A DNA stretch of 64,000 bases from Proteobacteria bacterium UBA2383 (GTDB lineage: Bacteria > Pseudomonadota > Gammaproteobacteria > Competibacterales > Competibacteraceae): positions 53,082-117,081 of the forward strand of contig DDST01000138.1 of assembly GCA_002343485.1 (NCBI GenBank), given 5' to 3'. The position numbers and the translations under genes were made by a program. Position 1 is the first letter of the stretch. Every line of letters begins with the position of its first letter. Shown piece by piece: positions 31,190 through 63,901 of the stretch. Under the pieces are notes generated by a model that saw only the letters and a list, made by a program, of their open reading frames with translations, did not search any database and was not told the origin of the DNA.

Positions 31190-31231
31190 GTGGGAGAGAG
31201 GACCTTGGCTACCTAGAGGCGTAATAGAATG

Positions 31232-34200: not shown

Positions 34201-34834
34201 TCTCGCCGGTCAGCAAGTAGTCGCGCAGATTGGCCGCAGCGTTGTTAGCGCTGCCTTGAGCGTGAGCGAGGATAAATGGGAGTTCTCCATGTGATGCATT
34301 GGTTTCCCGATGCCGCTCCAGATCGATCAGATGGGTCAAACTGTTCGAGAGGATTGAGGAGAGCGGTGCCGCTTGCTCGGTTAGCAACTGCACAGCGGGA
34401 ATATTGTCTGGCGTCCAGGCAATGTCTTCGATCGCCTGCTGATGAGCCAGGGCATCGGTCAGAAGCTGTTCGATGCGGGCTAAATCCGCTGCTGGCGGAT
34501 TCAGTGGATTTGACGGGGTTGCTGTCTGGGTCTTGAGTTGAGCGAGGGCTGGCAGGATCTCTTGCTCAATGGCCGTGCGCCGTTCTGTGCGGAATTGAGG
34601 ATCGCCAAGCAGCATCCAACCGCGCAGTGCGGCTTGGGAATGTTCGAGTCCGCCCAATATGCGCAGACTCGCCAAGGCCATCGGTGTGACGTGGCGAGTG
34701 ACCTCTTCCGTCGCCCCAAGATTCTGCTTGACCATGATCAGGGTAAAGGTACCGGTCACGGTGATGGTGAGAAACATCAAAGCCAAGCCGATATTTAGCT
34801 TTGCTCGTAGGGACCAGCTTTTGAGAGGACGCAT
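31232..34834 (-). CDS. hybrid sensor histidine kinase (periplasmic/4-helix sensor, HAMP, PAS, HisKA-HATPase, two receivers, HPt)
   Basis: 1200 aa. [13 protein letters not shown]-box, [27 protein letters not shown]. Two REC domains (VLVVDDN.., [17 protein letters not shown]). C-terminal HPt ([13 protein letters not shown]). Confidence 0.9.
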
Positions 34835-46478: not shown

Positions 46479-47435
46479 TCAGGCGGCATATTTGCATTCA
46501 TAATGGATAACATCGGGGTTTTCATCGAAGGCTGCTTGTCCTAAGCAAATAATACCTTGGTCTTGAAGAATGATTTCTTCACGTCGCACGAAAAAACGTG
46601 ACCCGTTTTCTAGCATCAAGTATGTTCCGTTCGTGCTGTGGTCCGCCAGGATAAATTTACCCTGCCGGGACTCAATAATGGCATGGCTGCGAGACACCAG
46701 TTCCCGGTCGATGACCAAGTTGTTTCTGGTACCACGGCCTATGCTAAAAGGCTCGGCGGAAGGCGCCAATTCAATATTCTGGCCACGATAAACCAGAAGT
46801 AGCCGGGCATATAATTTATTACGCAGGATCTTTTGCGTTTCCACATCAGACATCTGGGTGAGGCTAGTCGATTCATACCAGATCACCTCGACGATTTCCA
46901 TTTCATCCTGTTTACCACGCACCCAGGACCGGCCAAGGCCTCGGGTCATTTGTTGAAGGTCCGGTGACAGGTAGCTTACCGTCTCCCGTGTCGTAATGAT
47001 TTGATCCGCTTTGGCCAGGGCCACCATCCGGGCTGCAACATTGACTGCGTCGCCAAAGACATCATTCTTTTCAACTAACACTGACCCATGGTGGAGGCCA
47101 ATCCGAATCGCAATATTCAAATCGACTAACACCGGATCATTTTTGATCCCCTCCTGCATGTCACACGCAGCCTGTACTCCCGATGTGGCGGCAGGAAAGC
47201 GGCTCATGATTTCATCGCCAATCGTTTTAATTACTGTGCCATGATGGGTAGCCGTCCGTGCTGCAAGCAAGTCCAATACACGGCTTTCAATTTGCCGTGC
47301 GCGCACATCTCCGTACTTTTCAAACAGGTGGGTACTACCACAAATATCAGCGAATAACAGAGTGGCCATCTCTTGCTGGCTTGATCCCGATGGAGTGCCT
47401 AGCATGGATGCTAGGTTGCTCAGTTTAAATTTCAT
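46479..47435 (-). CDS. class III adenylate/guanylate cyclase with C-terminal FHA domain
   Basis: 318 aa. Cyclase metal/catalytic motifs FADICGST, IGDEIM, GDAVNVAARM. FHA motifs FSIGRG..N.LVI....VSRSHA and HSTNGTY. Confidence 0.85.
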   Translation of the reverse strand: MKFKLSNLASMLGTPSGSSQQEMATLLFADICGSTHLFEKYGDVRARQIESRVLDLLAARTATHHGTVIKTIGDEIMSRFPAATSGVQAACDMQEGIKNDPVLVDLNIAIRIGLHHGSVLVEKNDVFGDAVNVAARMVALAKADQIITTRETVSYLSPDLQQMTRGLGRSWVRGKQDEMEIVEVIWYESTSLTQMSDVETQKILRNKLYARLLLVYRGQNIELAPSAEPFSIGRGTRNNLVIDRELVSRSHAIIESRQGKFILADHSTNGTYLMLENGSRFFVRREEIILQDQGIICLGQAAFDENPDVIHYECKYAA

Positions 47436-49414: not shown

Positions 49415-51544
49415 ATGACAGCACCTTTTGTTGATCTACATTACGAGTGTGATCCTCCGGGGGTGATATTAATCCTGGAAGATGAGCCTTACATCCTGGC
49501 CGCCTTGTATCGCCAATTACCTCATGAATTCCATGTGGTTACGGCCACTACGGTTGATCAGGTGCTAGTCTTGCTGAATCAGCGGACCGTGGATGTGATC
49601 GTCATCGGCCAACGCATGGCTGGTGTCGGCATTGAGCTTCTCAGCGAGGTACGACAGCATGCTCCAAATACAGTTTGGATTTTGCTCGCCAATTGTCCGG
49701 CGCTAGATACGGCCATTCAGGCGAGCAACCTGGAGTGTATTGACGCTTACCTGGTGAGGCCTTTGGGCTCACTGGAGTTGTGTACTTTGCTGCATGAAGG
49801 CATCCAGGAAGCTCGTTTGCTGATCAAAAATCAGCAGTTGCTCAGCGAGCTGAGTCAAGTTAAGCAGCAACTGGAAATACAGATCAATCAACTAAAACAA
49901 GAGTTGCGCAACAGCCAGGAACAGTTTCAAAGCGTAGTGAGAAAGAATCAAGCCGGTATTCTGTTATTGGATGAGCAGGGCAAGATTCTATTCGCTAACC
50001 TGGCCGCAGAAACCCAGTTAGGCCGTAATGATCAAATGTTGATAGGCAGTGATTTTGGCATCCCCGTTTTACATGACAAAATGGAAATCACCATCCTGCT
50101 TCCTAACCGGACGCAGGGCATTGCTGAACTGATGGCCACCGAAACTCAGTGGCAGGGCCAGAACGCCTATCTGGTGATGCTGCATGATGTGACCCGGCAC
50201 AAAAAAGCGGAAGCCCAGGCCCGGCATCTGGCCAGCCACGATAGCTTGACGGCCTTACCTAATCGCGTCTTGTTTACTGATCGCCTTAACCAGGCGCTCC
50301 TGCGGGCGCAGCGTAGCAAAACCAAGGCCGCTGTGTTGTTTATAGATCTGAATCATTTTAAGGAAATCAACGATACGCTGGGTCATAAGGTCGGCGATCA
50401 CTTGCTTCAGCAATTCGCATCCCGGTTGGCCGAAGCAGTGCGTAAATCCGACACGGTGGCGCGGATGGGAGGCGATGAATTCACGGTGCTGCTGGAAGGG
50501 TTGAACGACCGCAAACAGGTCAGTGCCTTCGCCAAAAAACTGCAGAAACTTTTTAAACAGCCTTTCGCAATGGATAACGGTGAGTTGTTTGCTATTCCCA
50601 GCATCGGTATCAGCATCTACCCTGATGATGCTGGGAATACCGATGAGTTGCTGTGCCGGGCCGATAGCGCCATGTACTACGCCAAGCGCCATAAGGAAGT
50701 CGACTTCTGTTTTTATTCTAAAGAACTCGACACCCATAACCTCAACCGTCTGAGTCTGGAACATGACCTGCGCCGGGCATTGGAACGACAGGAATTTGTT
50801 CTGTATTACCAGATCCAGGTGCGTCTTTGTGATGAACGGCCTATCGGCACGGAGGCACTGGTACGCTGGCAGCATCCGAGCCGGGGGGTGGTTCTGCCTA
50901 ACGATTTTATCCCGTTGCTCGAAGACACTGGCCTGATTATACCCGTTGGCAACTGGATTCTAGCGGAAGTCTGCCGGCAGATTGCGGCGTGGCGCGCTAT
51001 GGATGTCGACCTTGTGCCGGTGGCAGTCAATATCTCTCCTAAGCAACTAGCAGATAAAAGTTTCATTGGAACGATGAGAGGCTTGCTGGAGCACAGTAAT
51101 ATGCAACCCCGCTTGCTGAGACTGGAATTAACCGAAAGCGCGGTGATGCAAGATCAGTCTTACATTTTTCAAACCCTGGATGCCCTGCGCGAACTAGGCA
51201 TTGAATTGCATATGGATGATTTTGGCGTAGGCTATTCGTCCCTCGGTCTGCTCAAGCAACTGCCCTTTGATATTGTGAAGGTGGACCAGAGTTTTATTGT
51301 CGACGTGTTGACTGATTCCAGCAGCGCCCTATTGACTCAATCGATCATCAACATAGCACATGGCCTTAAAAAACAGGTAATTGCCGAAGGTGTTGAAACT
51401 ACGGAACAAGCTGCGTATTTACTGCACATCGGTTGTGATCATGCGCAAGGCTGGCGGTATGGCCAACCTATTCCTGCAGCCAGCATGACAGACTACCTGC
51501 AAAATATGGAGTGCCTGAACGCTTCTGCCTCAGAGGAGGATTGA
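49415..51544 (+). CDS. pseudo-receiver-PAS-GGDEF-EAL protein
   Basis: 709 aa. REC-like N-terminus with Gly at the phospho-Asp position (DVIVIGQRMAG), coiled coil, PAS, GGDEF (RMGGDEFTVLL), EAL (EALVRW, DDFGVGYSS). Confidence 0.9.
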   Translation: MTAPFVDLHYECDPPGVILILEDEPYILAALYRQLPHEFHVVTATTVDQVLVLLNQRTVDVIVIGQRMAGVGIELLSEVRQHAPNTVWILLANCPALDTAIQASNLECIDAYLVRPLGSLELCTLLHEGIQEARLLIKNQQLLSELSQVKQQLEIQINQLKQELRNSQEQFQSVVRKNQAGILLLDEQGKILFANLAAETQLGRNDQMLIGSDFGIPVLHDKMEITILLPNRTQGIAELMATETQWQGQNAYLVMLHDVTRHKKAEAQARHLASHDSLTALPNRVLFTDRLNQALLRAQRSKTKAAVLFIDLNHFKEINDTLGHKVGDHLLQQFASRLAEAVRKSDTVARMGGDEFTVLLEGLNDRKQVSAFAKKLQKLFKQPFAMDNGELFAIPSIGISIYPDDAGNTDELLCRADSAMYYAKRHKEVDFCFYSKELDTHNLNRLSLEHDLRRALERQEFVLYYQIQVRLCDERPIGTEALVRWQHPSRGVVLPNDFIPLLEDTGLIIPVGNWILAEVCRQIAAWRAMDVDLVPVAVNISPKQLADKSFIGTMRGLLEHSNMQPRLLRLELTESAVMQDQSYIFQTLDALRELGIELHMDDFGVGYSSLGLLKQLPFDIVKVDQSFIVDVLTDSSSALLTQSIINIAHGLKKQVIAEGVETTEQAAYLLHIGCDHAQGWRYGQPIPAASMTDYLQNMECLNASASEED

Positions 51545-51690: not shown

Positions 51691-53487
51691 ATGAGCGCGC
51701 TTTCCTTGCTGCATCATCGGGTTGGCCAGACGCTGATCGCCGGCATCGCTTTATTAAGTCTGCTGGTGATAATCAGCACGACTGCCATTCAGTTTTATTT
51801 CGACTACCGGACTGCTCGCGCTGGACTTATGGCTCCCTTTGACCCGGTTCGCCATCTTGCTGATACCCGCCTGAGTCAGGCTGTCTGGGCCGAAAACAAC
51901 ACTCAAATTCAGGCGTTTCTGGATGTCCTGGTCACGATGCCCGATCTCTACTATGCAGCGATTATAAAACAAGGCCAAGTTCAAGCGCAGGCCGGTCAGC
52001 CTTCAGTCACATATCCTGTTGAATGGGAAATTCCATTGCAATTTACTCTTGAAGGCCAGCCGCTTGAAATCGCGCGTCTGCGCCTGATAAGCGACGAAGA
52101 TGCCATTTGCGCCCAACTGATCCGCCGATCCCTGCAGCGGCTGGCCACCACCACTGTGGAAATACTGGCTCTGGCTCTGCTCATTGTGCTGTTCCTGTTC
52201 CACGGCCTGACCCGCCGCCTGCAGGCCGTTGCTCACTGTGCCGGCGCACTGGATTCTGCACACGGTCCAGGCAGCGTGTGCCTGAACCGCTTGACATCCG
52301 CATGTGGCGAGGACGAACTCGATATTGCGGTCACCAATGCTAGCCGGGTCCATTGTAAACTGGCGGGTCTTTATGCGGATGAACACGCTCGCTCCAAGAC
52401 AGCGCTTCTGCATCTTGATTACGCGCTGGCTAACATGACGGAAGGACTGGCCCTAATGGATGCCGAGGGTTTGGTGCTACTGGCCAATCCCCGGCTGAAT
52501 GAACTCTACGGCGCTGATCACACGCCGGTATGGGCCGAAGGACAGCCGCTGGCTGCGATCAATGCTGCTCTGACCGAGCAGGCCATGGTCACCGAGGAAA
52601 TCGTGATTGAAGCAGTCGCGGACATGCGCTTGCTGGAACGCCGGTTGCGGGACGGACGATGGGTACTGGTCCGTGATCGCACCCTACCCGGCGGACGCCA
52701 GTTGCAGCTGCATACTGAGATCACCCAGCTTAAGCAGCGTGAATTGGATTTGCAGCACAGCAACGCAGATCTTGAGCAATTCGCCTATGTCGCCTCCCAC
52801 GATCTGCAAGAACCTTTGCGCATGATTACCGGGTATCTGCAATTATTGGAGCGCCGCTACCGGAACAAATTAGATGATTCGGCCCACGAGTTTATCGCCA
52901 TCGCGGTGGACGGGGCCAAGCGCATGCAGCAACTGATTCTCGATTTGTTAGCGTTCTCGCGGATCAGTACGCGCAGCCAAACCTATGCGTCGACCGATAT
53001 GGCACAGGTATTATCCAGCGTTCTTGCCAATCTTGAAGCCGCCATCCGCGATCATGCGGCCCTCATCCATCATGATCCACTGCCTACCATCGTCGCTGAT
53101 TCAGGGCAAATGCACCTATTACTGCAAAACCTGCTGGCCAATGCCCTCCGTTTCCACAAACCGGATGAGCCGCCACACATCACGATTAGCGCCCAGCATC
53201 TCAAAAAAACCTACCATGCTCCCTTGGACGGACAGGTTTCCGGCTGGATCTTCGCGGTATGTGATAATGGCATTGGTATTGAGCCGTGTTTTTTTGAACG
53301 CATTTTCATTATCTTTCAGCGGCTGCATACTCGGGAGGAGTATCCGGGCACCGGAATTGGGCTGGCGGTTTGTAAAAAGATCGTTGAGCGTCATGGCGGG
53401 CGCATTTGGGTCGAATCTAAGCTGGATCAAGGAACATGCTTTCGCTTTTTCCTGCCCGATCATTCACTCACTATAGGTTCTGCTTGA
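51691..53487 (+). CDS. membrane sensor histidine kinase (TM-periplasmic-TM, PAS, HisKA-HATPase; H-box of the SHDLQEPLR type)
   Basis: 598 aa. FAYVASHDLQEPLRMI H-box, NLLANALRF, DNGIGI, GTGIGLAVCKKIVERHGG. Confidence 0.9.
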   Translation: MSALSLLHHRVGQTLIAGIALLSLLVIISTTAIQFYFDYRTARAGLMAPFDPVRHLADTRLSQAVWAENNTQIQAFLDVLVTMPDLYYAAIIKQGQVQAQAGQPSVTYPVEWEIPLQFTLEGQPLEIARLRLISDEDAICAQLIRRSLQRLATTTVEILALALLIVLFLFHGLTRRLQAVAHCAGALDSAHGPGSVCLNRLTSACGEDELDIAVTNASRVHCKLAGLYADEHARSKTALLHLDYALANMTEGLALMDAEGLVLLANPRLNELYGADHTPVWAEGQPLAAINAALTEQAMVTEEIVIEAVADMRLLERRLRDGRWVLVRDRTLPGGRQLQLHTEITQLKQRELDLQHSNADLEQFAYVASHDLQEPLRMITGYLQLLERRYRNKLDDSAHEFIAIAVDGAKRMQQLILDLLAFSRISTRSQTYASTDMAQVLSSVLANLEAAIRDHAALIHHDPLPTIVADSGQMHLLLQNLLANALRFHKPDEPPHITISAQHLKKTYHAPLDGQVSGWIFAVCDNGIGIEPCFFERIFIIFQRLHTREEYPGTGIGLAVCKKIVERHGGRIWVESKLDQGTCFRFFLPDHSLTIGSA

Positions 53488-53539
53488 TCCTGTATCCCTA
53501 CGTTAATCTTTGAATAGCATACCGGAATTGTGAACTGTC

Positions 53540-53995
53540 ATGGATAATACCCTTCATTCAACTCAGTTGATTAGCATTCTCCTGGTAGAGGACAGTCCGG
53601 CTGACGCGCGCTTGACCTGTGAAGCGCTGAAAGATGGCAAGGTTGCCAATCGTATTCATATTGTCGATGACGGGATAAAAGCCTTGGCGTTTCTACGCCG
53701 GCTGCCGCCTTATGAACATGCGCCCCCGGTTGACATCATCCTTCTTGATCTGAATATGCCACGCATGGACGGACGAACCGTGCTGGCTGAGATCAAAGCC
53801 GATCCAGTGCTAAAAGTGATACCTGTCGTGATTCTGACCACTTCTCAGGCGGATGAAGACGTCTTGCGCGCTTATGAATTACAAGCGAATTGCTACGTCA
53901 CCAAACCCGTGGACCTGGATCAACTGATCAAAGTGGTGACCAGTATTCAGGAATTCTGGTTTTCCATCGTGCGGCTTCCTGATCAGAGGAAATAG
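53540..53995 (+). CDS. single-domain response regulator (Rcp1-like)
   Basis: 151 aa. [35 protein letters not shown]. Confidence 0.9.
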
Positions 53996-54000
53996 ATGAC

Positions 54001-54876
54001 ATGGCTGATGTGCAAGCGCCTACTCGACCGCTGCGCCTGCTCTTGGTTGAAGACGATGCGGGCCATGCCCGGTTGACCAGGGAATGGCTCCAGGAAGCGG
54101 ATCCGTTTGGATTTGCTATCACGCACGTCGTCACTTTGACTGCCGCCCTAGCTGTGCTGAAAGAACAGGTTTTCGATTTGATGGCGCTGGATCTTGGGCT
54201 TCCGGATAGCCAGGGACTGGTTACCCTGCAAAAAATGCGCGCCATGATTTCCGATATCCCGATTGTGGTGTTGACCAACCAGTCAGATGAATCCATGGGC
54301 ATCGCTGCGGTCGAAGCAGGCGCTCAGGATTACCTGGTCAAAGGCCACTTTGAACCCGAATATCTGCTCTCGCGCACCTTTAAATACGCTGTCGAACGCC
54401 ATCAACTCCAGCAACGGGTGAATGCCGCCCGCGAGGAGGCGGAACAACAACGGGAACTGCTGGAGCTGACCAAAAGAATCAACGGCCATACTCCCGTGAC
54501 GTTGTCATTGTATAGCCAGAAAGCTTTGGCCGACTATAATGCGGTGCTGTTTCAGACGCTGGTCAACACGTATCGCGACTTGCTAGAGAAGGCGGTGGAG
54601 CAGCAGGCATTCAAAGTGGAGCATCCCGTCGATCGCGGGTTGACCGCACTGGCGCAACAACTGGGTTTTTTGAAAGCCGGACCGCGTGATGTCATTGACC
54701 TGCACTCCCGCGCGTTAGAAATCGCCTTGCAGAACCGGGGCAAATATGCCGCCAAATTCTATGCCGACGAAGGGCGGCTAATGGCGCTGGAATTGATGGG
54801 AGATCTGGTCAATTACTACCGGCATTTCTACCGGAATGCGCTGCATAGCACACAGACTGGAAAAGAACCCCTTTGA
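54001..54876 (+). CDS. receiver domain fused to a KaiA-like (or RsbU_N-like) helical C-terminal domain; candidate KaiA3-type protein
   Basis: 291 aa. Canonical REC ([28 protein letters not shown]). The C-terminal ~110 aa align by eye with the S. elongatus KaiA C-terminal domain (details in findings). It lies 13 nt upstream of kaiB. Confidence 0.6.
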
Positions 54877-54889
54877 TGGACTTCGCACC

Positions 54890-55177
54890 ATGAATAAATA
54901 CCTGCTCAAGCTCTACATTACCGGATGTACTCCGCAAAGCGAGCGCGCGATTAGTAACCTGTACCGGATTTGCGAGGCGGAAATGCAAGGTCAGTTCGAG
55001 GTGCAAATCATCGATGTCTTGCAATCACCTGAGCTTGCTGAGAAAGATCGCATTATTGCTACGCCGACTCTAATTAAGGATTTGCCGCAACCCTTGCGGC
55101 GTATCATTGGCGACCTGTCCGATGTCGAGCGTGTCCTGCGAGGACTGGATATTGAGCAAATCCACGGACAACCATAA
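54890..55177 (+). CDS. kaiB: circadian clock protein KaiB homologue
   Basis: The internal ATG at 54890 gives 95 aa. [62 protein letters not shown]. Confidence 0.9.
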
Positions 55178-55190
55178 GGAGCTACCCGCG

Positions 55191-56717
55191 ATGTCCTCTT
55201 ATCACTCTAATCGGATTAGCAAGCTGGCGACGGGGATTGCCGGTTTCGATGCGATCGCTAAAGGCGGACTACCCGAGGGGCGTACCACTCTGATTGCCGG
55301 TTCGGCCGGCAGCGCCAAGACCGTGTTCGCTGTCCAGTTTCTTGCTGAAGGCATCCGTCAGTTTGACCAGCACGGCGTATTTGTCACTTTCGAGGAAGCG
55401 CCCGCCGATATCCGCCGCAATATGGCGTCCCTGGGCTGGGATATCGCTGCTTGGGAAGCTGCAGGATGTTGGGCCTTTGTCGATGCTTCGCCGCTACCTG
55501 GTGAGGCCGAGGTCATCGCCGGTGCCTACGATCTTGGTGCGCTGCTGGCCCGTATCGAGGTTGCGGTTAACCGGGTCGGCGCGCGGCGATTGGCCATGGA
55601 TTCACTGGGGTCCTTGTTCAGTCATTTTGAGAATCATGCACTAATCCGCAACGAGCTGTTCCGCATCTCAGCCGCGCTGAAACTGATGAACATCACCGCG
55701 ATCATGACCGCCGAGCGTACCCAGGAGTACGGTGACATCAGCCGCTACGGTGTGGAAGAGTTTGTGGTCGATAATGTCATGATCCTGCGCAATGTGCTGG
55801 ATGGGGAGAAGCGGCGGCGGACCGTGGAGCTGCTCAAATTCCGCGGCACCGAACACCAGAAGGGTGAATATCCGCTGACGGTACTCCCCGGTCAGGGTAT
55901 CGTGGTCATCCCGCTGTCAGCCATCGAACTCAAGCAACGCTCGTCGAACACCCGCCTCACGTCCGGCAGCCGCGAATTAGACGCCATGTGTGGCGGCGGA
56001 TTCTTCCGTGATTCGATTATTCTGGTGTCCGGGGCCACCGGTTGCGGCAAAACACTCATCACCACCGAGTTTGCCGCCAGCGGTGCGTCCGGAGACGAGC
56101 GATGCCTATTTTTGGCTTTCGAGGAGAGCCGGGATCAGTTGACGCGGAATGCGACTGGCTGGGGCAAAAACTTTGAAGATTTGGAATCCCGGGGCTTGCT
56201 CAGGGTCATCGCAACTTATCCGGAAACAATGGGACTGGAAGACCATCTGATCGCCATCAAGATGGCCATTGACGAATTCCAGCCTAATCGCGTGGCGGTG
56301 GACAGCCTGTCCGCCCTAGAACGGGTCTCCACCGTCAAGGGTTACCGCGAATTCGTCATCGGCTTGACGTCGTTCATCAAGCACCGTGAAATCGCTGGCT
56401 TGTTCACCTCCACGACGCCACGGCTGATCGGCGGCGAATCGATCACTGAAGCGCATATTTCCACTATCACGGATTCCATTATTCTGCTGCGCTACGTGGA
56501 GATGTTTGGGGAGATCACTCGCGGCATCACGGTGCTGAAGATGCGCGGCTCAGCCCACGATAAGGAGATCCGCGAGTTTTCCATCGACGCCAACGGCATG
56601 CACATTGGTAAGGCCTTCCGCAACGTTACCGGTATCCTGTCGGGTCATCCGCGCCATGTGGAACCTCAGGAAATCGGGCGGTTGAACGCCTTGTTTGTTA
56701 ATCATAACGAGGCGTGA
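55191..56717 (+). CDS. kaiC: KaiC homologue (double RecA-type ATPase)
   Basis: ATG at 55191 follows AAGGA. 508 aa. CI P-loop GSAGSAKT with TFEE. CII P-loop GATGCGKT with AFEE. The phosphosite region ITEAHISTITDSIILLRYVE conserves the T..S-T triad. Confidence 0.95.
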   Translation: MSSYHSNRISKLATGIAGFDAIAKGGLPEGRTTLIAGSAGSAKTVFAVQFLAEGIRQFDQHGVFVTFEEAPADIRRNMASLGWDIAAWEAAGCWAFVDASPLPGEAEVIAGAYDLGALLARIEVAVNRVGARRLAMDSLGSLFSHFENHALIRNELFRISAALKLMNITAIMTAERTQEYGDISRYGVEEFVVDNVMILRNVLDGEKRRRTVELLKFRGTEHQKGEYPLTVLPGQGIVVIPLSAIELKQRSSNTRLTSGSRELDAMCGGGFFRDSIILVSGATGCGKTLITTEFAASGASGDERCLFLAFEESRDQLTRNATGWGKNFEDLESRGLLRVIATYPETMGLEDHLIAIKMAIDEFQPNRVAVDSLSALERVSTVKGYREFVIGLTSFIKHREIAGLFTSTTPRLIGGESITEAHISTITDSIILLRYVEMFGEITRGITVLKMRGSAHDKEIREFSIDANGMHIGKAFRNVTGILSGHPRHVEPQEIGRLNALFVNHNEA

Positions 56718-56748: not shown

Positions 56749-57261
56749 TCAATTCACTTGTAGCAAGGCTAGCAACCCCTCCAGCAATTGCATCGGAGCC
56801 GGCGGGCAACCAGGAATATGCAAATCAACTGGAATTACCTCGGCCACTCCACCCGCACAAGCATAGCTCTTGGCGAACACGCCGCCATCTCGCCCGCAAT
56901 CGCCGATTGCCACCACCCATTTAGGATCGGGTGCCGCCGCGTAGGTGCGCTCCAGCGCCTCGCGCATATTCGTGGTCACCGGGCCGGTGACCAGCAATAC
57001 ATCCGCATGGCGCGGCGAAGCGACGAAATGAAAACCGAAGCGTTCCAGATCATAAAAGGCGTTATTCAGCGCATGAATTTCCAGTTCGCAACCGTTGCAG
57101 GAACCTGCATCCACCTCACGGATCGCTAGACTGCGCCCTAGCCGCTGCCGGGCTGCCTGATCGACCTTCGCGCCTAATTCAGCCAGCGCTTGTCCGGATG
57201 GGGCCGGGGCCGGGATGGTGAGTGGCAGCCGCCAGAGATTTTGCAACAATAATTTGCGCAT
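56749..57261 (-). CDS. NuoB/HyfI-like small subunit with [4Fe-4S] ligands
   Basis: 170 aa. GSCNGCE, GDCG and GCPP supply four Cys, as for the N2/proximal cluster. Confidence 0.9.
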   Translation of the reverse strand: MRKLLLQNLWRLPLTIPAPAPSGQALAELGAKVDQAARQRLGRSLAIREVDAGSCNGCELEIHALNNAFYDLERFGFHFVASPRHADVLLVTGPVTTNMREALERTYAAAPDPKWVVAIGDCGRDGGVFAKSYACAGGVAEVIPVDLHIPGCPPAPMQLLEGLLALLQVN

Positions 57262-57272
57262 GGCGGGACCGC

Positions 57273-58793
57273 CTACAAGTCGTGGCCCGAATACGAGCCG
57301 TTAAACGATTTATTGCACAGCGGGAAATCCGCTACGATGTTGCCCTCGATGGCTGCTTCCAGCAGGGGCCACTGAAACCAGGACGGATCGCGGGGATGGC
57401 AGCGTGCTACCGTCCCGTCGCTGTTCAATCGCAGCCAGACTAGAATATCGCCGCGAAAGCCCTCGATCAGCGCCATACCTTCACACGGCCGGCCAAGCGC
57501 GTTCAGCGCCACGCCCACCGGCCCGGATGGCAGCTTCTGCAAAATCTGTTCGATCAACGCCAGGCTTTGCTCCACCTCGCAGATGCGCAGCCACACGCGA
57601 CCGTTGACGTCACTATCAGTCCGCAGGGGCACCTCGAATTTCAATTCATCGTAAGGCGGATAACCCAGTGCACGGCGTGCGTCAAAAGCGCGGCCTCCGG
57701 CCCGGCCGACATAGCCGCCACAGCCAAATTGGCGGATCAGCGCCGGTTTGACAAAGCCGGTTTTAACTGTGCGGTCTTGCAGCGAAGCGGTGTTGTCGTA
57801 CAACGTGACCAGCGGTGGAAATTGGCGGCGGATACCGGTTACCAAGGATTGCAAAATATCCGGCCCATCTGCGGGCAGATCAGTGGCCACCCCGCCTGGA
57901 ATGACACTATCCATTAGCAGACGATGGCCGAAACAGGCCGCACTGGCCCGCAGAATCTGCTCGCGCAGCACGGCGCAATGGGCCAGCATCAAGGCAAAAG
58001 CGGCATCGTTGCAAATCGCGCCGATGTCACCGCAATGATGGGCCAGCCGCTCCAATTCTGCCATCAGCGCCCGTAGCCAATGGGCACGGGCAGGAATTTC
58101 AGTTTCCGTGGCGGCTTCTACCGCACGAGCGAAAGCCAGCGCGTAAGCAACGGTGCTATCCCCAGATATCCGTCCGGCTAGCTGCGCTGCTTGCTCCAGC
58201 GATGCGCCTTTCAGCAGGCCCTCGATGCCTTTATGGACATAGCCCAACCGTTGCTCCAGCCGTGCTACGGCTTCGCCGTTGGCGGTAAAGCGGAAATGGC
58301 CAGGTTCAATGATCCCGGCGTGAACCGGTCCCACTGGAATCTGGTGCAGGCTTTCGCCTTCTACCGGCAAAAATGGGTATGGCGGCACCGGTGAGGCCGG
58401 CGCAGTGGCAGCACCCAGCGGATGGCGCACTGGCCAGCGGCCATGATCCAGCCACGGACGAACATCGGGCGCGCCGACCGGGTGTAAACCCATCAAATCG
58501 GCGATCGTGCGTTCCAGACGTTGCGCCGGTGGATGCCGGCGGCCCACTGAGGGAAAGCATCCATCCGGGCAGGGCAGGCTGGCGACGCTCAGCATCCCGC
58601 TTGCCTCCTCACGCACGGCCAAATGCACAACTCCCGTCTCACCCCATAATCCCAGCAGCGTCCAAACATTACCCGCCAAGCCTTCAATCAGGGTATTCCA
58701 GATTTCGGGCGTCACGACGACCCGGGGCCAGGGGCGATGGTCCGCCACCGGGTGGCCGGCATCGAGAACTGCTTGCAAGGATTGTGTATTCAT
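57273..58793 (-). CDS. fused NuoC-NuoD / HycE-like large subunit lacking the N-terminal NiFe cysteines (Ehr-type)
   Basis: Start taken at MNTQSL (ATG 58793, 11 nt after the upstream stop); the listed longer ORF overlaps the upstream gene. GPVHAGIIEPGHFRF and RLGYVHKGIE are conserved. It reads GRISGDSTVAY where NiFe enzymes have R-[IV]-C-G-[IV]-C. The C-terminus reads DFPLCNKSFNGSYSGHDL instead of DPCxxCxxR/H. Confidence 0.85.
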   Translation of the reverse strand: MNTQSLQAVLDAGHPVADHRPWPRVVVTPEIWNTLIEGLAGNVWTLLGLWGETGVVHLAVREEASGMLSVASLPCPDGCFPSVGRRHPPAQRLERTIADLMGLHPVGAPDVRPWLDHGRWPVRHPLGAATAPASPVPPYPFLPVEGESLHQIPVGPVHAGIIEPGHFRFTANGEAVARLEQRLGYVHKGIEGLLKGASLEQAAQLAGRISGDSTVAYALAFARAVEAATETEIPARAHWLRALMAELERLAHHCGDIGAICNDAAFALMLAHCAVLREQILRASAACFGHRLLMDSVIPGGVATDLPADGPDILQSLVTGIRRQFPPLVTLYDNTASLQDRTVKTGFVKPALIRQFGCGGYVGRAGGRAFDARRALGYPPYDELKFEVPLRTDSDVNGRVWLRICEVEQSLALIEQILQKLPSGPVGVALNALGRPCEGMALIEGFRGDILVWLRLNSDGTVARCHPRDPSWFQWPLLEAAIEGNIVADFPLCNKSFNGSYSGHDL

Positions 58794-58804
58794 TGCTCTG
58801 TCTC

Positions 58805-60262
58805 TTAGCCTAACAATGCCGCGACACTTTGAAACCAGGCCACCAGTGGCCCCGGTAACCAGAATCCGGCGGCCAGCACCAATATGAGATGCGTCATCAT
58901 AGGCAGTGCGGTGACGGGCGCAGGTCCCGGCATATTCGCGCCCTGCGATTCGCCAAATGCTATGCCATGTAATCGCCATAACAAGGTGCCGAACCCTAGC
59001 AGCAACCCGATGACCAGCGGCAGTGCCAGCCACGGTTCGCGAGCAAACGTAGAACTGACCACCAGAAACTCACTCATGAACACGCCGAATGGCGGCATGC
59101 CGGCAATGGCCATCACCCCGGCCACGAATCCCCAGCCCAGCAGCGGATGGGTCGCGGTCAGTCCGTGAATCGTGGAAATCCGCTGCGTACCCTTGACCTG
59201 CGAGATATAACCGACAGCAAAGAAAATCGCTGACTTGGTGAGACTGTGCATCGTCATATGCAGCAGACCGGCAAAATTGGCCAAGGGCCCGCCCATGCCG
59301 AAGGCAAAGGTCATGATGCCCATGTGTTCAATCGACGAGTAGGCGAACAGCCGTTTGATGTCGCCGCGCCGGTAGAACATGAACCCAGCGAACAGCAATG
59401 ATAACAGCCCTAATCCGGCCATCAACGGCCCTGGTGCCAAAGCGGATGGGTTCGCGTTCATCAGTATCTTGAAGCGCAGCACCGCATACAGCGCCACATT
59501 CAGCAGCAGGCCCGACAGCACCGCCGAGATCGGCGTCGGGCCTTCGGCATGGGCATCCGGCAGCCAGGCATGCAACGGAACCAGACCGGCCTTGGTGCCG
59601 TAACCGAGCAGCAGGAAGATGAACGCCAGATTCAGCAACGCTGGATCAAAGGCGTGCGCGTGCGTCAATAACTGATCCCAGGCCATCGCGGGCAAGCCTT
59701 GGCCCATGACCGGTTGCGCCGCTAGATACACCAGGATGGTGCCAAACAATGCTAAAGCAATGCCGAGACTGCCGAGGATGAAATACTTCCAGGCGGCTTC
59801 CAGCGCTTCACGGGTCCGGTAAATACCAACCATCAGCACCGTCACCAGCGTCGCCAGTTCGATCGCTACCCACAGCAGGCCAATGTTGTTGGCCAGCAGT
59901 GCCAAGTTCATGGCAAACACCAGCGCCTGATACATCGCGTGATAAAAGCGCAAATGCTTCGGTGTAAGCCGCCCGGTCTCCAGTTCATGGGTAATGTAGC
60001 TGGCGCTGAATGCACTGGTGGTGAAACTGACCAGATTGTTGAGTATGATCAGATAGGTGTTGAAATCATCCACCCGCAGGTAGACATTAGCGCCGGGCCG
60101 CACCCCAAACAGGATCATTGACGCCAACAGGCTGATCAGCGCCGCACCGGCATTCAGCCCGGCACCCAGCCGGTAACTAGGCAATCCCGCCAGCAGCAGT
60201 GCAGCGCCGGCGGGAATCGCCAGCAGCGCGGTCATCGCCATCCAGCCTAAATCGCCATTCAT
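58805..60262 (-). CDS. NuoN/M-HyfF-like antiporter-type membrane subunit
   Basis: 485 aa, about 14 TM, Mrp/NuoN-type pattern (..GYGTKAGLVPLHAWLPDAHAEGP..). Confidence 0.9.
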   Translation of the reverse strand: MNGDLGWMAMTALLAIPAGAALLLAGLPSYRLGAGLNAGAALISLLASMILFGVRPGANVYLRVDDFNTYLIILNNLVSFTTSAFSASYITHELETGRLTPKHLRFYHAMYQALVFAMNLALLANNIGLLWVAIELATLVTVLMVGIYRTREALEAAWKYFILGSLGIALALFGTILVYLAAQPVMGQGLPAMAWDQLLTHAHAFDPALLNLAFIFLLLGYGTKAGLVPLHAWLPDAHAEGPTPISAVLSGLLLNVALYAVLRFKILMNANPSALAPGPLMAGLGLLSLLFAGFMFYRRGDIKRLFAYSSIEHMGIMTFAFGMGGPLANFAGLLHMTMHSLTKSAIFFAVGYISQVKGTQRISTIHGLTATHPLLGWGFVAGVMAIAGMPPFGVFMSEFLVVSSTFAREPWLALPLVIGLLLGFGTLLWRLHGIAFGESQGANMPGPAPVTALPMMTHLILVLAAGFWLPGPLVAWFQSVAALLG

Positions 60263-60927
60263 CGCCGCCGCTCTCCACGAAATGCATCCATTGCCTGCAT
60301 ATCGACGCTATCGAAGCGCTCACGAATGCGAAACAGGAAAATACCGATCACGATCAAAGCGATCAGTACCGAGAATGCGACGCTGATCTCCACGGCCAGC
60401 GGCATTCCCCGCGCCCCGGCGGCGGCCAGCACCAGCCCGTTTTCCAATGACATAAAACCGATGACCAGGCTGACCGCATTGTGGCGGTTGACCATCAACA
60501 ACAGCCCCAGCAGCACCACTGCCAGGGCGAACGCCAAGTCCTCCCGCGCCACCGCATCGGTTCCTGCCGTTACCGGCAGCATCACCAGGATCGCAAGAGC
60601 CACCAGGGCTGCACCGGCTAGCATATCGCGGCCCACGCCTCCTACCACATCCAAAGTGCGATGGATGCCCAATCGCCGGACAATCCGATACAGTGCGGCC
60701 GGAATGACGATCGCTTTGAATATCAATGCGATCCCGGCAGTGACATATAAATGATGGGCTTCCTGGATGTATGCTTGCCAGCCGACCGCCAGCGCCAGGG
60801 TCAGCGAGTGCAAAGCGAAGACCTTGAGCAGCGCATATAGGCGATGCTGATACAGCAACAGCAGGCTGATGACCACCATGCCGCCTGCTAGAAAATGGGC
60901 GATATCGAACTCAAGACTGTGCATCAC
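60259..60927 (-). CDS. HyfE-like membrane subunit
   Basis: 222 aa, multi-TM. 4-nt overlaps with both neighbours. Confidence 0.8.
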   Translation of the reverse strand: MMHSLEFDIAHFLAGGMVVISLLLLYQHRLYALLKVFALHSLTLALAVGWQAYIQEAHHLYVTAGIALIFKAIVIPAALYRIVRRLGIHRTLDVVGGVGRDMLAGAALVALAILVMLPVTAGTDAVAREDLAFALAVVLLGLLLMVNRHNAVSLVIGFMSLENGLVLAAAGARGMPLAVEISVAFSVLIALIVIGIFLFRIRERFDSVDMQAMDAFRGERRR

Positions 60928-61880
60928 AGGCTCCGTGACACGAACAGCAGCAGCGCGCCGAGCAAACCGAGCATCAGCGCCATGCCCAAAAATTGATCGA
61001 CGCGGAACACGCGCATTTTGGCAATGCGGGTCTCAAACAGCGCCAGCAGAAACCCGCCTAGCCCCAATTTGGCCAGATAGGCTGCCACGCCAGTTAGGTA
61101 GGCGGTTAAATCTTCGCCTGCGGTGGTCATACCCCAGGGGGCAAAGATGCAGCCGAGCAGCGAAAGATACAATAACAGCTTGAGCGAGGCAGCCAGTTCG
61201 ATTAGCGCCAGATGGCGGCCGGAGTATTCCAGCACCATGGCTTCATGCACCATGGTCAGCTCCAGATGGGTAGCTGGATTGTCCACCGGAACGCGGGCGT
61301 TTTCGGCGATCGCCACCATGACCAGCGCTAACAGCGCTAGCGCCAGCGATACCCGCAAACCGACATCGGCATTCAGCATGAATCGGGCGACCGCCGACAG
61401 CTCAGTGGTGCCGGCCAGTAACGATAAAGTGAACACTATCATCAGCATGGCCGGTTCTGCCAAGGACGCGATCATCATTTCGCGGCTGGCGCCGATGCCG
61501 CCAAAGCTGGTGCCAGTGTCGAGACCCGCCAACGCCAGGAAAAAACGGGCTGTCCCCAGCAAGGCGACGATGGCGATCAGATCGGCGGCCCAATTGAACG
61601 GCAAGCCGCTGGCAAAGGTCGGCACCAGCGCCGCCGCCACCCAGATGGCGGCAAAGATCAGGTAGGGCGCTACCCGAAACAGCCAGGATGCCGAGTCGGC
61701 CAGCACCACGTCCTTACGCAGCAGCTTGAGCAGATCGCGGTAGGGTTGTAGCGGCGATGGACCGCGCCGGCGCAGCAATTGGGCCTTGAGGGTGCGGATC
61801 CAGCCGGTGAGCAGCGGCGCCAGCAGCAAGATCAGCAGCATTTGCCCGCCCTGGACCAGATAATCCGTGATTAGCGCCAT
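60924..61880 (-). CDS. NuoH/HyfC-like membrane subunit
   Basis: Start taken at MALITDYLV (ATG 61880). The listed 608-aa ORF is an upstream extension running through the preceding gene. 318 aa, NuoH-like TM pattern. Confidence 0.9.
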   Translation of the reverse strand: MALITDYLVQGGQMLLILLLAPLLTGWIRTLKAQLLRRRGPSPLQPYRDLLKLLRKDVVLADSASWLFRVAPYLIFAAIWVAAALVPTFASGLPFNWAADLIAIVALLGTARFFLALAGLDTGTSFGGIGASREMMIASLAEPAMLMIVFTLSLLAGTTELSAVARFMLNADVGLRVSLALALLALVMVAIAENARVPVDNPATHLELTMVHEAMVLEYSGRHLALIELAASLKLLLYLSLLGCIFAPWGMTTAGEDLTAYLTGVAAYLAKLGLGGFLLALFETRIAKMRVFRVDQFLGMALMLGLLGALLLFVSRSL

Positions 61881-63901
61881 AGCACTATCCCGAGCAGCAG
61901 CAATACCAGCGCGCCGAACACCAGACTTAAATAACGGCGAATCGTTAGGTATTGCAAGTTGTTGAAACGCTTTGAAAGAGCGATAACTGCCTGGGTAATC
62001 GGCGCATAGCCGTAGTCCCAGACCGGGTCGCGCATTTTGACTTCGAAGCGTGCTGCTCGCCCATCGCCGGGCGGCGGCATGGTGACTTGTTCGCGGGCCT
62101 GGAATACTACGCTGCCGAAGACGCGGCGGATGGGTTGGGCGAAACTGCCAGCGGTGTACTGGGCGGCGGGGCTGGCATCGGGGAAACCGCAGTCCCAGGC
62201 TGGGCTGCGCCGGACCCGATTGGAGGCGAACCCGTGAATCAGCACGGCGGCGAGTATCCCGGATAACGCCATGAACAACAGCACCAGCAGACCGTTGTAA
62301 GTGCTTTTCATATCGGCCACCGGTACCAAGGTCAACCACGGCTGATGCTGTTGCGCTGGCAACTGGGCGCCGCCGTTGAGCAGACCCACTGCTGGCGACA
62401 ATCCATCTATCACCAGCCCTGGTAAAGTTCCAGCCAGCAGGCACAATGCCGCCAGAGTGAACAGCGCGGCCAATGAGTAGCGATCGGTCTCTTGCGCTTT
62501 TGCAGCCGCCGGCGAACGGGGGCGGCCGAGGAAGGTAATGCCAAAGGCTTTGACGAAACAGGCGGCAGCTAAGGCAGCAGACAACGCCAACAGCGCCCCG
62601 GCTGCCGGGGCCAGGAATTTGAGCAGCCATTGCGGTAATTCCGGCGTCAGCAAAATCGCCTGGAAGGTCAGCCATTCGGAGACAAAACCGTTCAATGGCG
62701 GTAGCGCCGAAATCGCCGCCGCGCCGGTCAGGAAGGCCAGCGCGGTCCACGGCATCGGGTGAATCAATCCGCCCAGCCGCTCCATATCGCGTTCGCCGGT
62801 TGCGGTCAAGACCGCGCCAGTCCCCATAAATAACAGGCTTTTGAACAGCGAATGATTCAGCACATGAAATAGCGCCGCGGTCAGCGCCAGCGCCGCGCTG
62901 GCGTACATTTGATTGCTCTGGAAGGCCAGTGCTAGACCCAAGCCGATGAAAATAATGCCGATATTCTCCACAGTGTGATAGGCCAGCAACCGTTTCAGAT
63001 CATGCTGCATCAGCGCATACAGCACCCCGAGCACCGCCGTGATTCCACCCAGCGCCAGCACGAGCCCGCCCCACCACCATGCGACCGGTTCCCCCAATAG
63101 ATCGAAGACAATGCGGATGAAGCCGTACACGGCGACCTTGGTCATGACGCCGCTCATCAGCGCCGATACGTGGCTGGGCGCGGCGGGGTGCGCCAGCGGC
63201 AACCAGACATGCAAGGGGACCAGCCCGGCTTTGGAACCGGTCCCCATCAACACCAGAATGAGCGCCAGCGCCGCCAGTCCTGGCGTCATTTCCACGGTTC
63301 GGATTGTGGCGAAGTCATAACCACCATTGGCACCAGCCAGCAGGCCGAAGGCCAATAACAGCGCCAGCGTGCCAAGGCAGGCCATGACCAGATACAGATA
63401 ACCGGCGCGGGCATTGGCTGGTTCCCGGTGATGGGCCATGACCAGCGCCCAGGAACTCAGCGACATGAATTCCCAGGCGAACAGGAAAGTGAAGGCATCG
63501 TCAGCCAGCAGCACCAGGTTCATGCCCGCTAGAAACGCGGGGTAGAACGGCAACACCCGCCCCGGCGCTGGTTCATGCTGGCCATAACCCAGCGCAAATA
63601 GGCTGGCGACCGCGCCGCCCAAATTAACCACAATCAGGAAGAAAGCGGATAGTGCGTCCAGGCGGAAATGCGCGCCCAGCCAGGGCAGGCCCAAAGGTAA
63701 GGTGAGCGTGACTGGTGCGGCGGCGTTCAGCAGATGCGTCAGCGCCATCCCCAGCAGGATGACGCAAATCACTAAGCTGACCCCGTAGACCTGAAGACTG
63801 CAACTCGCTCGGCGTGAAGCGAGGATGGCATAGAGGCCAATAGCAAGCAGGATCATGGACAAACTTAACAGCAGCGGCAGTGGCATGGTGGTGAAATTCA
63901 C
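61871..63901 (-). CDS. NuoL-HyfB-like antiporter-type membrane subunit
   Basis: 676 aa. ..GTGSKAGLVPLHVWLPLAHPAAPSHVSALMSG.., typical of the NuoL/HyfB family. Confidence 0.9.
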   Translation of the reverse strand: MNFTTMPLPLLLSLSMILLAIGLYAILASRRASCSLQVYGVSLVICVILLGMALTHLLNAAAPVTLTLPLGLPWLGAHFRLDALSAFFLIVVNLGGAVASLFALGYGQHEPAPGRVLPFYPAFLAGMNLVLLADDAFTFLFAWEFMSLSSWALVMAHHREPANARAGYLYLVMACLGTLALLLAFGLLAGANGGYDFATIRTVEMTPGLAALALILVLMGTGSKAGLVPLHVWLPLAHPAAPSHVSALMSGVMTKVAVYGFIRIVFDLLGEPVAWWWGGLVLALGGITAVLGVLYALMQHDLKRLLAYHTVENIGIIFIGLGLALAFQSNQMYASAALALTAALFHVLNHSLFKSLLFMGTGAVLTATGERDMERLGGLIHPMPWTALAFLTGAAAISALPPLNGFVSEWLTFQAILLTPELPQWLLKFLAPAAGALLALSAALAAACFVKAFGITFLGRPRSPAAAKAQETDRYSLAALFTLAALCLLAGTLPGLVIDGLSPAVGLLNGGAQLPAQQHQPWLTLVPVADMKSTYNGLLVLLFMALSGILAAVLIHGFASNRVRRSPAWDCGFPDASPAAQYTAGSFAQPIRRVFGSVVFQAREQVTMPPPGDGRAARFEVKMRDPVWDYGYAPITQAVIALSKRFNNLQYLTIRRYLSLVFGALVLLLLGIVLWR

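Follow-up and report, generated by a model that had tools for sequence, protein, structure and literature searches.

Whether non-phototrophic bacteria run free-running Kai clocks, and which kinase would then signal to them, are questions that a compact five-gene cassette from a gammaproteobacterium is well suited to address. The cassette lies at positions 51691-56717 of a 64,000-nucleotide stretch of contig DDST01000138.1 from Proteobacteria bacterium UBA2383, a Competibacteraceae-like organism; we refer to this whole stretch as the window. Competibacteraceae are glycogen-accumulating organisms of wastewater. The five open reading frames (ORFs), all on the + strand and with intergenic gaps of 52, 5, 13 and 13 nt, encode a sensor histidine kinase (HK), a single-domain receiver (REC1), a protein of 291 amino acids (aa) in which a receiver is joined to a KaiA-like helical domain, KaiB and KaiC. 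We take the locus to be, with a probability of about 0.6, a KaiA3-KaiB3-KaiC3 post-translational timing module that is preceded in the same apparent operon by a probable signal-input two-component pair.

The cluster had been picked out by a model from the nucleotide sequence, and the coordinates and spacing of its five co-directional genes are exactly as claimed in that original prediction. All five domain assignments were likewise borne out, by profile searches (Pfam and NCBIfam) and, for the KaiA-like part, by other means.

KaiC and KaiB are of the KaiC3 and KaiB3 types

The product of the last gene scores 710.7 bits against NF006799 (cut-off 408) and 623.9 bits against TIGR02655 (cut-off 546.25), and is matched by Pfam KaiC in two stretches; these equivalog scores and the double-domain match rule out a RadA-like or archaeal single-domain KaiC-like ATPase. 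Its identity is 69% to the cyanobacterial KaiCs linked to kaiA3, Cyanothece KaiC3 included, 54.5% to KaiC1 of T. elongatus and 35.6% to a KaiC2-like paralogue. Among PDB entries, the reconstructed ancestor KaiC-beta scores best (691 bits), with KaiC1 at ~570 bits and the Rhodobacter KaiC at 322 bits. In a neighbour-joining (NJ) tree of 77 KaiCs, a distance tree that carries no bootstrap support values, the window KaiC falls within the kaiA3-linked clade that holds the cyanobacterial KaiC3s, and this clade is separate both from KaiC1 and from a second, more divergent clade linked to kaiA3-like genes. Judged by tree and scores, the protein is a KaiC3 (group III of Mukaiyama et al.), and not one of the non-timing RadA/KaiC-like ATPases that would have told against the original prediction.

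The prediction had further judged that KaiC looks catalytically complete, with both EE pairs, both P-loops and the T..ST phosphosite triad, and this needs one correction. The EE pairs are found at residues 70-71 in CI (TFEE) and 313-314 in CII (AFEE), the motif SITEAHISTITD is present, both Walker B motifs are conserved, and the triad T419/S424/T425 is intact (nt 56445-56465). The CII Walker A motif reads GATGCGKT (residues 281-288); that of CI reads GSAGSAKT (residues 37-44; 55299-55322), with an Ala replacing the consensus Gly before the Lys. Since Ala or Ser stands here in most of the KaiC3 clade, cyanobacterial members included (Ala in the majority, Ser in Cyanothece KaiC3), we regard the Ala as a KaiC3 signature that is compatible with function. 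The substitution could be tied to the slow ATPase that has been reported for KaiC3 of Synechocystis. At the C-terminus, an A-loop-like tail, GILSGHPRHVEPQEIGRLNALF, begins at residue 481; it is of KaiC1-like length and is conserved in the clade.

KaiB matches PF07689 (E 4.5e-29) and scores 110.1 bits against NF006798, for which the cut-off is 110. Its score against TIGR02654, 107.8 bits, is under the cut-off of 145.3, consistent with a type other than KaiB1, and it is 64% identical to Cyanothece KaiB3.

The 291-residue protein as a KaiA3 orthologue

Köbler et al. 2024 (PMC11372060) described KaiA3 as Sll0485, a 299-aa protein whose gene lies ahead of kaiB3 and kaiC3 and in which a NarL-type receiver, with the phospho-acceptor D65, is joined to a KaiA-like C-domain. 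The 291-residue window protein consists of a receiver (~11-121), a long linker helix (121-162) and a KaiA-like helical domain (~176-285), in which the motifs of the family occupy two 11-residue stretches (221-231 and 257-267). The receiver (Pfam Response_reg, E 2.6e-19) has the residues E17-D18, Asp64 (nt 54190), Thr92 and Lys114; Asp64 is invariant among 66 family members, and the other catalytic residues are likewise conserved. Aligned with the KaiA3 of Cyanothece/Crocosphaera ATCC 51142, the protein against which orthology was judged in place of Synechocystis Sll0485 itself, it is 36% identical with 279 of its 291 residues aligned (E 8e-52), and the alignment spans both domains.

In the AlphaFold2 (AF2) model of the full-length protein (pLDDT 86), a linker helix of 40 residues leads from the receiver to a helical bundle. 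Because receiver domains swamped the Foldseek search made with this model, the C-domain was modelled separately (pLDDT 84.5, pTM 0.70), and KaiA C-domains take the first six places among the PDB matches of the isolated domain (probability 0.92-0.98, TM up to 0.67). The predicted fusion of a receiver to a KaiA-like domain is thus upheld by orthology to KaiA3 and by these six fold matches. In every respect that can be tested from sequence, the protein is a KaiA3 orthologue.

A sensor kinase and an Rcp1-type receiver precede kaiA3

HK is matched in Pfam by CHASE5 (3.3e-8), PAS_7 (1.8e-9), HisKA (3.8e-13) and HATPase_c (2.1e-23), and is laid out as a first transmembrane segment (TM1, ~10-37), CHASE5 (38-143), a second transmembrane segment (TM2, ~150-177), PAS_7 (246-351), HisKA (361-426) and HATPase_c (470-590). 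As the two hydrophobic segments flank CHASE5, HK is a membrane sensor with a periplasmic domain. The H-box reads SHDLQEPLR, with His370 at nt 52798. The nearest PDB matches of the kinase core are bacteriophytochrome-type kinases (8f71, 1.6e-47; 8sgk, 5e-36); Pfam finds no GAF or PHY domain, such that HK and REC1 make up an Rcp1-family transmitter-receiver pair in which HK is not a phytochrome. A SasA-type clock output kinase was considered for HK and rejected, since there is no KaiB-like (thioredoxin-like) N-terminal domain: its N-terminal half is made up of TM-CHASE5-TM-PAS, and HK resembles the SasA model NF006800 in the kinase core only. REC1 (Pfam Response_reg, 4.4e-21) is closest in the PDB to Rcp1 (1i3c, 3.9e-40) and RcpA (1k68, 5.4e-40) and has the acidic pair E17-D18, the phospho-acceptor Asp70 (nt 53747), Thr100 and Lys122.

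REC1 has >7,900 homologues, many of them at 61-71% identity, and in seven of seven sampled contexts there are no kai genes beside them. In all seven, the Rcp1-like gene is followed by a gene that itself starts with a receiver (REC-HisKA-HATPase in six, REC-GAF in one), and a sensor HK precedes it in five; one of the upstream HKs is 47.5% identical to the core of the window HK. Between the receiver plus linker of the window KaiA3 and the receiver encoded by the third gene in these cassettes, identity is 37-44% (E down to 4e-35), a homology that we did not find described in open-access papers and preprints. Given the pattern shared by the seven contexts, the five-gene cluster looks like a generic "sensor HK - Rcp1-like response regulator - REC-effector" cassette that has the KaiA-like domain as its effector and kaiBC downstream.

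The arrangement recurs across phyla

Related loci were collected by searching a genome set, in which each species is represented once, for one conserved peptide of the C-domain, which yielded 162 genomes; the counts that follow cover the best 80 of the 162 loci. The loci are labelled Competibacteraceae, Cyanobacteria, Chloroflexota (including Roseiflexus, a published KaiA3 host), magnetotactic Nitrospirota, Acidobacteriota, Planctomycetota, Verrucomicrobiota, Desulfobacterota, Tectomicrobia and Leptospirales, among others. A contig of the metagenome-assembled genome (MAG) HK-STAS-PROT-137 is 93-95.6% identical to the window at the nucleotide level, and the next relatives are MAGs of Competibacter/Competibacteraceae. 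The 291-residue protein and REC1 have 100% identical counterparts under the labels "Gammaproteobacteria bacterium" and "Candidatus Competibacteraceae bacterium".

The KaiA-like gene forms an uninterrupted run with kaiB and kaiC on a single strand in 76 of the 80 loci, two of the four exceptions being contig ends, and the order kaiA3-kaiB-kaiC is also that of the Cyanothece locus. The full order HK-REC-kaiA3-kaiB-kaiC is found in ~17 loci (L001-L004, L008, L009, L012, L013, L023, L026, L032, L035, L049, L055, L056, L058 and L064), which span Nitrospirota, Planctomycetota, Verrucomicrobiota, Chloroflexota, Tectomicrobia and others. Conservation of the gene order in relatives, on which the original prediction had laid weight, therefore holds for the core in nearly all loci and for the complete cassette in about a fifth. 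In ~10 further loci, notably in Roseiflexus, the order is HK-kaiA3-kaiB-kaiC with no single receiver, and KaiA3 is therefore the only receiver in the Roseiflexus operon.

Of the 75 loci that do not belong to the clade of the window, 24 have an HK with this type of core immediately before kaiA3. Outside that clade, HKs directly upstream have a median identity of 42% to the window HK core, as against 27% for HKs elsewhere in the loci, and the corresponding medians for REC1 are 53% for directly upstream single receivers and 32% for those elsewhere. The HK cores upstream of kaiA3 in other phyla are 42-55% identical to that of the window, and their N-terminal sensors vary: CHASE5 in the window, MASE3 in Magnetobacterium and cytoplasmic PAS elsewhere. 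We found no description of a recurrent operonic HK, with or without an Rcp1-type receiver, upstream of kaiA3 in open-access papers and preprints, and one may exist elsewhere.

The C-domain itself is far more widely distributed. A profile of it run against 1.84 billion cluster representatives matched 1,823 clusters, defined at 50% identity, at E<=1e-3 and 1,556 at E<=1e-10, with members of 160-850 aa. Pfam scans of the longer members place the KaiA-like domain also behind REC-PAS, PAS-PAS, MEDS-GAF-PAS and MEDS-PAS, MEDS being a KaiC/RecA-related sensory domain. Within the surveyed loci, KaiA-like ORFs of 410-705 aa have sensor fusions, PAS-PAS-PAS among them, where the lone receiver would be (L006, L017, L028, L046 and L068). 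As the C-domain is found behind such varied sensor domains, the position of the receiver is that of an interchangeable sensory input module.

Some of the surveyed loci are of interest in their own right. Four of them (L010, L012, L018 and L064) have two kaiA3-like/kaiB/kaiC clusters, in tandem or nearby (e.g. L010:3986-10316). The KaiC of the second cluster belongs to a separate clade (54-57% identity) and is accompanied by its own more divergent KaiA3-like and KaiB genes; these second clusters may represent an undescribed subtype. L064 (JAHPZH010000004.1), which is labelled as a Helarchaeota archaeon, is a bacterial-looking HK-REC-kaiA3-kaiB-kaiC-kaiB-kaiC array on a 605-kb contig. L005 (JAAUTD010000270.1) is labelled as a Synechococcaceae cyanobacterium and is a 5.3-kb contig with a coverage of 2.35; its genes, including a GGDEF-EAL neighbour, are 59-81% identical to those of the window, so it is probably a mis-binned Competibacteraceae-like contig.

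Proposed mechanism

By homology to the Synechocystis and Cyanothece systems, a KaiA3 dimer would bind the C-terminal tail of KaiC and promote autophosphorylation; KaiB would bind phosphorylated KaiC and sequester KaiA3, permitting dephosphorylation and giving a phosphorylation cycle. The gene architecture suggests in addition that HK phosphorylates Asp64 of KaiA3 and also Asp70 of REC1, in which case REC1 would be a competing sink or modulator, and that KaiA3 activity would in this way be gated or entrained by a signal from outside the cell or from the cytoplasm. An input kinase is implied by the receiver domain that KaiA3 carries, and the membership of HK and REC1 in the generic "sensor HK - Rcp1 - REC-effector" cassette makes HK a testable candidate for the cognate kinase.

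To our knowledge, no Kai system other than KaiA3B3C3 and the canonical one has been shown to oscillate. That the window module free-runs, with a period of roughly 24 h, and is not a signal-driven timer is a tentative proposal from homology, to which we give somewhat less than even odds. The suggestion of a self-sustained oscillator appears reasonable and is not new: the idea that KaiA3B3C3-type systems might explain non-cyanobacterial rhythms is already in print (PMC11372060).

A more ambitious version of the proposal is doubtful. It would make the CHASE5-PAS HK, with its Rcp1-type sink or modulator, representative of the KaiA3 input kinase class, entraining a self-sustained oscillator in a non-phototrophic, glycogen-accumulating wastewater bacterium, and would have KaiA3 arise by replacement of the kinase core of the cassette's REC-HK third gene with a KaiA-like domain. 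If this were true, circadian clocks with two-component entrainment would be widespread, in at least 162 species-level genomes that bear about a dozen phylum-level labels.

A review of July 2026 still refers to the kinase of KaiA3 as unidentified (PMC13421787). The cyanobacterial loci give no clue to this kinase, whereas the window and ~27 of the 80 related loci place a specific kinase core directly upstream of kaiA3, and the kinases found there supply concrete protein pairs for phosphotransfer work. The KaiA-like domain is also far wider spread than the five published non-cyanobacterial genera, and is attached to diverse N-terminal sensor modules.

Observations against the proposal and alternative explanations

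A number of observations weigh against our reading of the locus as a KaiA3-KaiB3-KaiC3 module with an operonic input pair, and we set them out here together with the alternatives. Several concern KaiA3. Its direct similarity to canonical KaiA is weak: the 291-residue protein has no match to Pfam KaiA (PF07688) even at E 0.01, its C-terminal 150 residues match no Pfam family, and a phmmer search of the PDB with the C-terminus returned nothing. An hhalign comparison of the C-domain with a single KaiA C-domain sequence gave E 2.3e-4, which counts for the assignment, at a probability of 44%, and the Foldseek E-values for the KaiA C-domain matches are 0.085-0.23. In favour of a KaiA-like domain, four of the seven PDB matches of a C-domain profile built from 33 sequences are KaiA C-domain chains, aligned in one shared region at E 0.6-3.3, and Pfam KaiA is the most frequent weak match among the family members (3 of 33, best E 0.0085). 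With similarity at this level, it is chiefly the orthology to KaiA3 that carries the KaiA-like assignment. A canonical KaiA the protein is not, given the lack of a PF07688 match and the complete receiver, with Asp64, that it has instead of a pseudo-receiver.

Others concern the two-component pair. The closer homologues of REC1, those at 61-71% identity, sit in non-kai contexts, and kai-linked REC1s are no nearer to each other than to unlinked ones. With these results, and with the size of the family and the seven kai-free contexts, REC1 and HK were rejected as a clock-dedicated orthologous group. By the same comparisons, REC1 and the core of HK are part of a very large, generic Rcp1/phytochrome-type cassette that is not clock-specific, and the description of the pair as "dedicated" has to be given up for a family that usually occurs without kai genes nearby. 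The cognate partner of HK could be REC1 alone, and the upstream HK-REC pair is absent at cyanobacterial kaiA3 loci. A single transcription unit for the five genes is plausible, judged from their spacing alone.

The alternative that survives best, though we consider it less likely, makes the module a driven hourglass or a stress switch, in which KaiA3 is set entirely by the kinase signal and the phosphorylation of KaiC tracks that signal or ATP/ADP, as for the KaiBC systems of Rhodobacter, Rhodopseudomonas and Legionella. The host, a non-phototrophic, Competibacteraceae-like bacterium that comes from a metagenome, has no obvious need for a free-running 24-h clock, and a genuine receiver on KaiA3 suggests external control. 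The evidence for oscillation of KaiA3B3C3 is confined to cyanobacterial members; the group III KaiC of R. rubrum is reported not to have oscillated in the combinations tried, namely with S. elongatus KaiA (PMC12081879). The ATPase of Synechocystis KaiC3 is temperature dependent and not compensated (PMC6989803), so that temperature compensation is not assured in the KaiC3 clade. Against an hourglass stand the closest studied systems: combined in vitro with the KaiB and KaiA3 of the same organism, the KaiC3s of Cyanothece and Synechocystis oscillate (Mukaiyama et al. 2025, PMC12081879; PMC11372060). The KaiC tail of the window is short and KaiC1-like, without the long C-terminal extension of Rhodobacter, and Köbler et al. 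2024 (PMC11372060) see in a KaiA-type activator alongside KaiB the feature that sets self-sustained oscillators apart from hourglasses.

It is improbable that HK and REC1 are an output of the clock, whose state would, by way of KaiC, KaiB or KaiA3, modulate HK and, through REC1 and the REC-PAS-GGDEF-EAL protein encoded directly upstream, the turnover of c-di-GMP, with a logic like that of SasA-RpaA. The upstream gene is conserved in relatives, c-di-GMP enzymes recur beside kai clusters in other phyla, and the cluster encodes no DNA-binding output regulator, all of which would fit. HK, however, lacks a SasA-style KaiC-binding domain and has the combination of CHASE5 and PAS that is typical of input sensing; the complete receiver of KaiA3 is most simply read as an acceptor, and the PAS, GAF and MEDS variants found in its place point to an input role. 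Least probable is that HK and REC1 are an unrelated neighbouring two-component system, with the KaiA3 receiver served by a kinase elsewhere or left unphosphorylated, for which the huge and mostly kai-unlinked family and the cyanobacterial operons without the pair could be cited, but which sits poorly with a REC1-kaiA3 gap of just 5 nt, with the recurrence of the arrangement in several phyla, with the Roseiflexus operons that have HK-kaiA3 and no REC1, and with a KaiA3 that fills the REC-effector slot of the generic cassette by means of a homologous receiver.

Locus layout and surroundings

The features of the cluster and the gene upstream of it are collected in Table 1. The start codons picked for KaiB and KaiC agree with the N-termini of their homologues, and a strong ribosome-binding site, AAGGAG, lies ahead of kaiC. 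A scan of the region for promoters and terminators gave fewer sites than shuffled sequence; the sole terminator-like site is within the end of kaiC, and none was found inside the five-gene cluster upstream of that point. Rfam and tRNA scans across the region found nothing.

Table 1. Genes of the kai cluster and the adjoining upstream gene, in window positions.
Feature	Position	Strand	Product	Basis
Sensor histidine kinase (HK)	51691..53487	+	598 aa	Pfam, hydropathy, motif positions
REC1, single-domain response regulator, Rcp1/RcpA type	53540..53995	+	151 aa	Pfam, PDB matches
KaiA3 orthologue, receiver + helical domain	54001..54876	+	291 aa	Alignment, AF2/Foldseek, HMMs
KaiB, KaiB3 type	54890..55177, from ATG at 54890	+	95 aa	Pfam, NCBIfam, identity
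KaiC, KaiC3 type	55191..56717, from ATG at 55191	+	508 aa	NCBIfam, Pfam, NJ tree, motifs
REC-PAS-GGDEF-EAL protein	49415..51544	+	709 aa, 146 nt upstream of HK	Pfam

The REC-PAS-GGDEF-EAL gene is kept at the same upstream position in the close relatives L001-L005. It is possible, and uncertain, that it is a sixth member of the unit, serving either as another receiver target or as an output through c-di-GMP. Genes for PAS-GGDEF/EAL proteins are again found next to kaiA3-kaiB-kaiC clusters of other phyla and close to that of Cyanothece (L006, L020, L021, L024, L078, L081:1685-3670), which hints at a link between c-di-GMP and this type of clock.

On the other side of the cluster, a group-4 [NiFe]-hydrogenase or formate-hydrogenlyase/Ech-like membrane complex is encoded on the - strand (56749-62750), convergent with kaiC and with 31 nt between the stop codons. 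Its parts include an Oxidored_q6 small subunit, a fused Complex1_30kDa/49kDa NiFe large subunit, a Proton_antipo_M protein and a NuoH-like protein. For R. rubrum, which is a KaiA3B3C3 host, rhythmic uptake-hydrogenase activity has been reported (cited in PMC11372060); in the window the relationship is one of adjacency only.

Genes for two-component and c-di-GMP signalling are unusually numerous in the window as a whole. A second REC-PAS-GGDEF-EAL protein adjoins a large hybrid kinase (HAMP-PAS-HisKA-HATPase-REC-REC-Hpt) at 29033-34834 (-), an adenylate/guanylate cyclase-FHA protein is encoded at 46479-47435, and an SSF-transporter-like kinase at 8822-11548. An ORF of 1,163 aa at 25491-28982 (+) matches no Pfam family at E 1e-5.

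Comparison with known systems

Köbler et al. 2024 (PMC11372060) have already described the KaiA3B3C3 module, with Rhodospirillum and Bradyrhizobium among its hosts. The original prediction had offered a KaiA-type activator as something beyond the known proteobacterial KaiBC systems: the activator is there, in the form of KaiA3, whereas the novelty was overstated, as the module is published, proteobacteria included, and the locus adds a member to a known type. The window resembles the systems of R. rubrum (Rru_A3293 and neighbours) and Bradyrhizobium in being a proteobacterial KaiA3B3C3 without canonical KaiA (PMC11372060); those hosts are Alphaproteobacteria, whereas that of the window is a gammaproteobacterium.

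With the KaiA3B3C3 systems of Synechocystis 6803 and Cyanothece ATCC 51142, the window shares the three proteins, their order and the architecture of KaiA3 (291 aa here, 294-299 there), and Cyanothece KaiC3 likewise has a residue other than Gly before the Lys of the CI Walker A motif. The differences are that the window host is non-phototrophic, that no KaiA1B1C1 is encoded within the window, and that only here is the operon extended upstream by a CHASE5-PAS HK and an Rcp1-type receiver.

The likeness to the canonical KaiABC of S. elongatus PCC 7942 and Thermosynechococcus extends to the phosphosites, the EE pairs, the length of the KaiC tail and the KaiB fold family. The canonical KaiA has a pseudo-receiver where the window protein has a true one, and its C-domain fold is the best structural match to that of the window protein. 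The literature describes the residues of the KaiA-KaiC contact as poorly conserved in the KaiA3/KaiC3 pair. Unlike the canonical system, the window cluster encodes no SasA, CikA or RpaA.

Gene order, HK followed by a single REC and a gene starting with REC, is what the cluster has in common with Cph1-Rcp1-type modules and the generic cassette. The sensor of the window, built of CHASE5 and PAS, is not a phytochrome as in the former; in comparison with the latter, the kinase core of the third gene is swapped for a KaiA-like domain, and kaiB and kaiC follow.

Finally, the KaiB2C2 hourglass of Rhodobacter sphaeroides (8dba) is, like the window, a proteobacterial KaiBC timing system. Its KaiC has 568 aa, of which the alignment covers up to residue 488 and ~80 residues extend beyond, whereas in the window KaiC, of 508 aa, the alignment reaches residue 497. 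The literature describes the A-loops of the Rhodobacter protein as constitutively exposed, with no KaiA needed, whereas the window KaiC has a KaiA3 partner.

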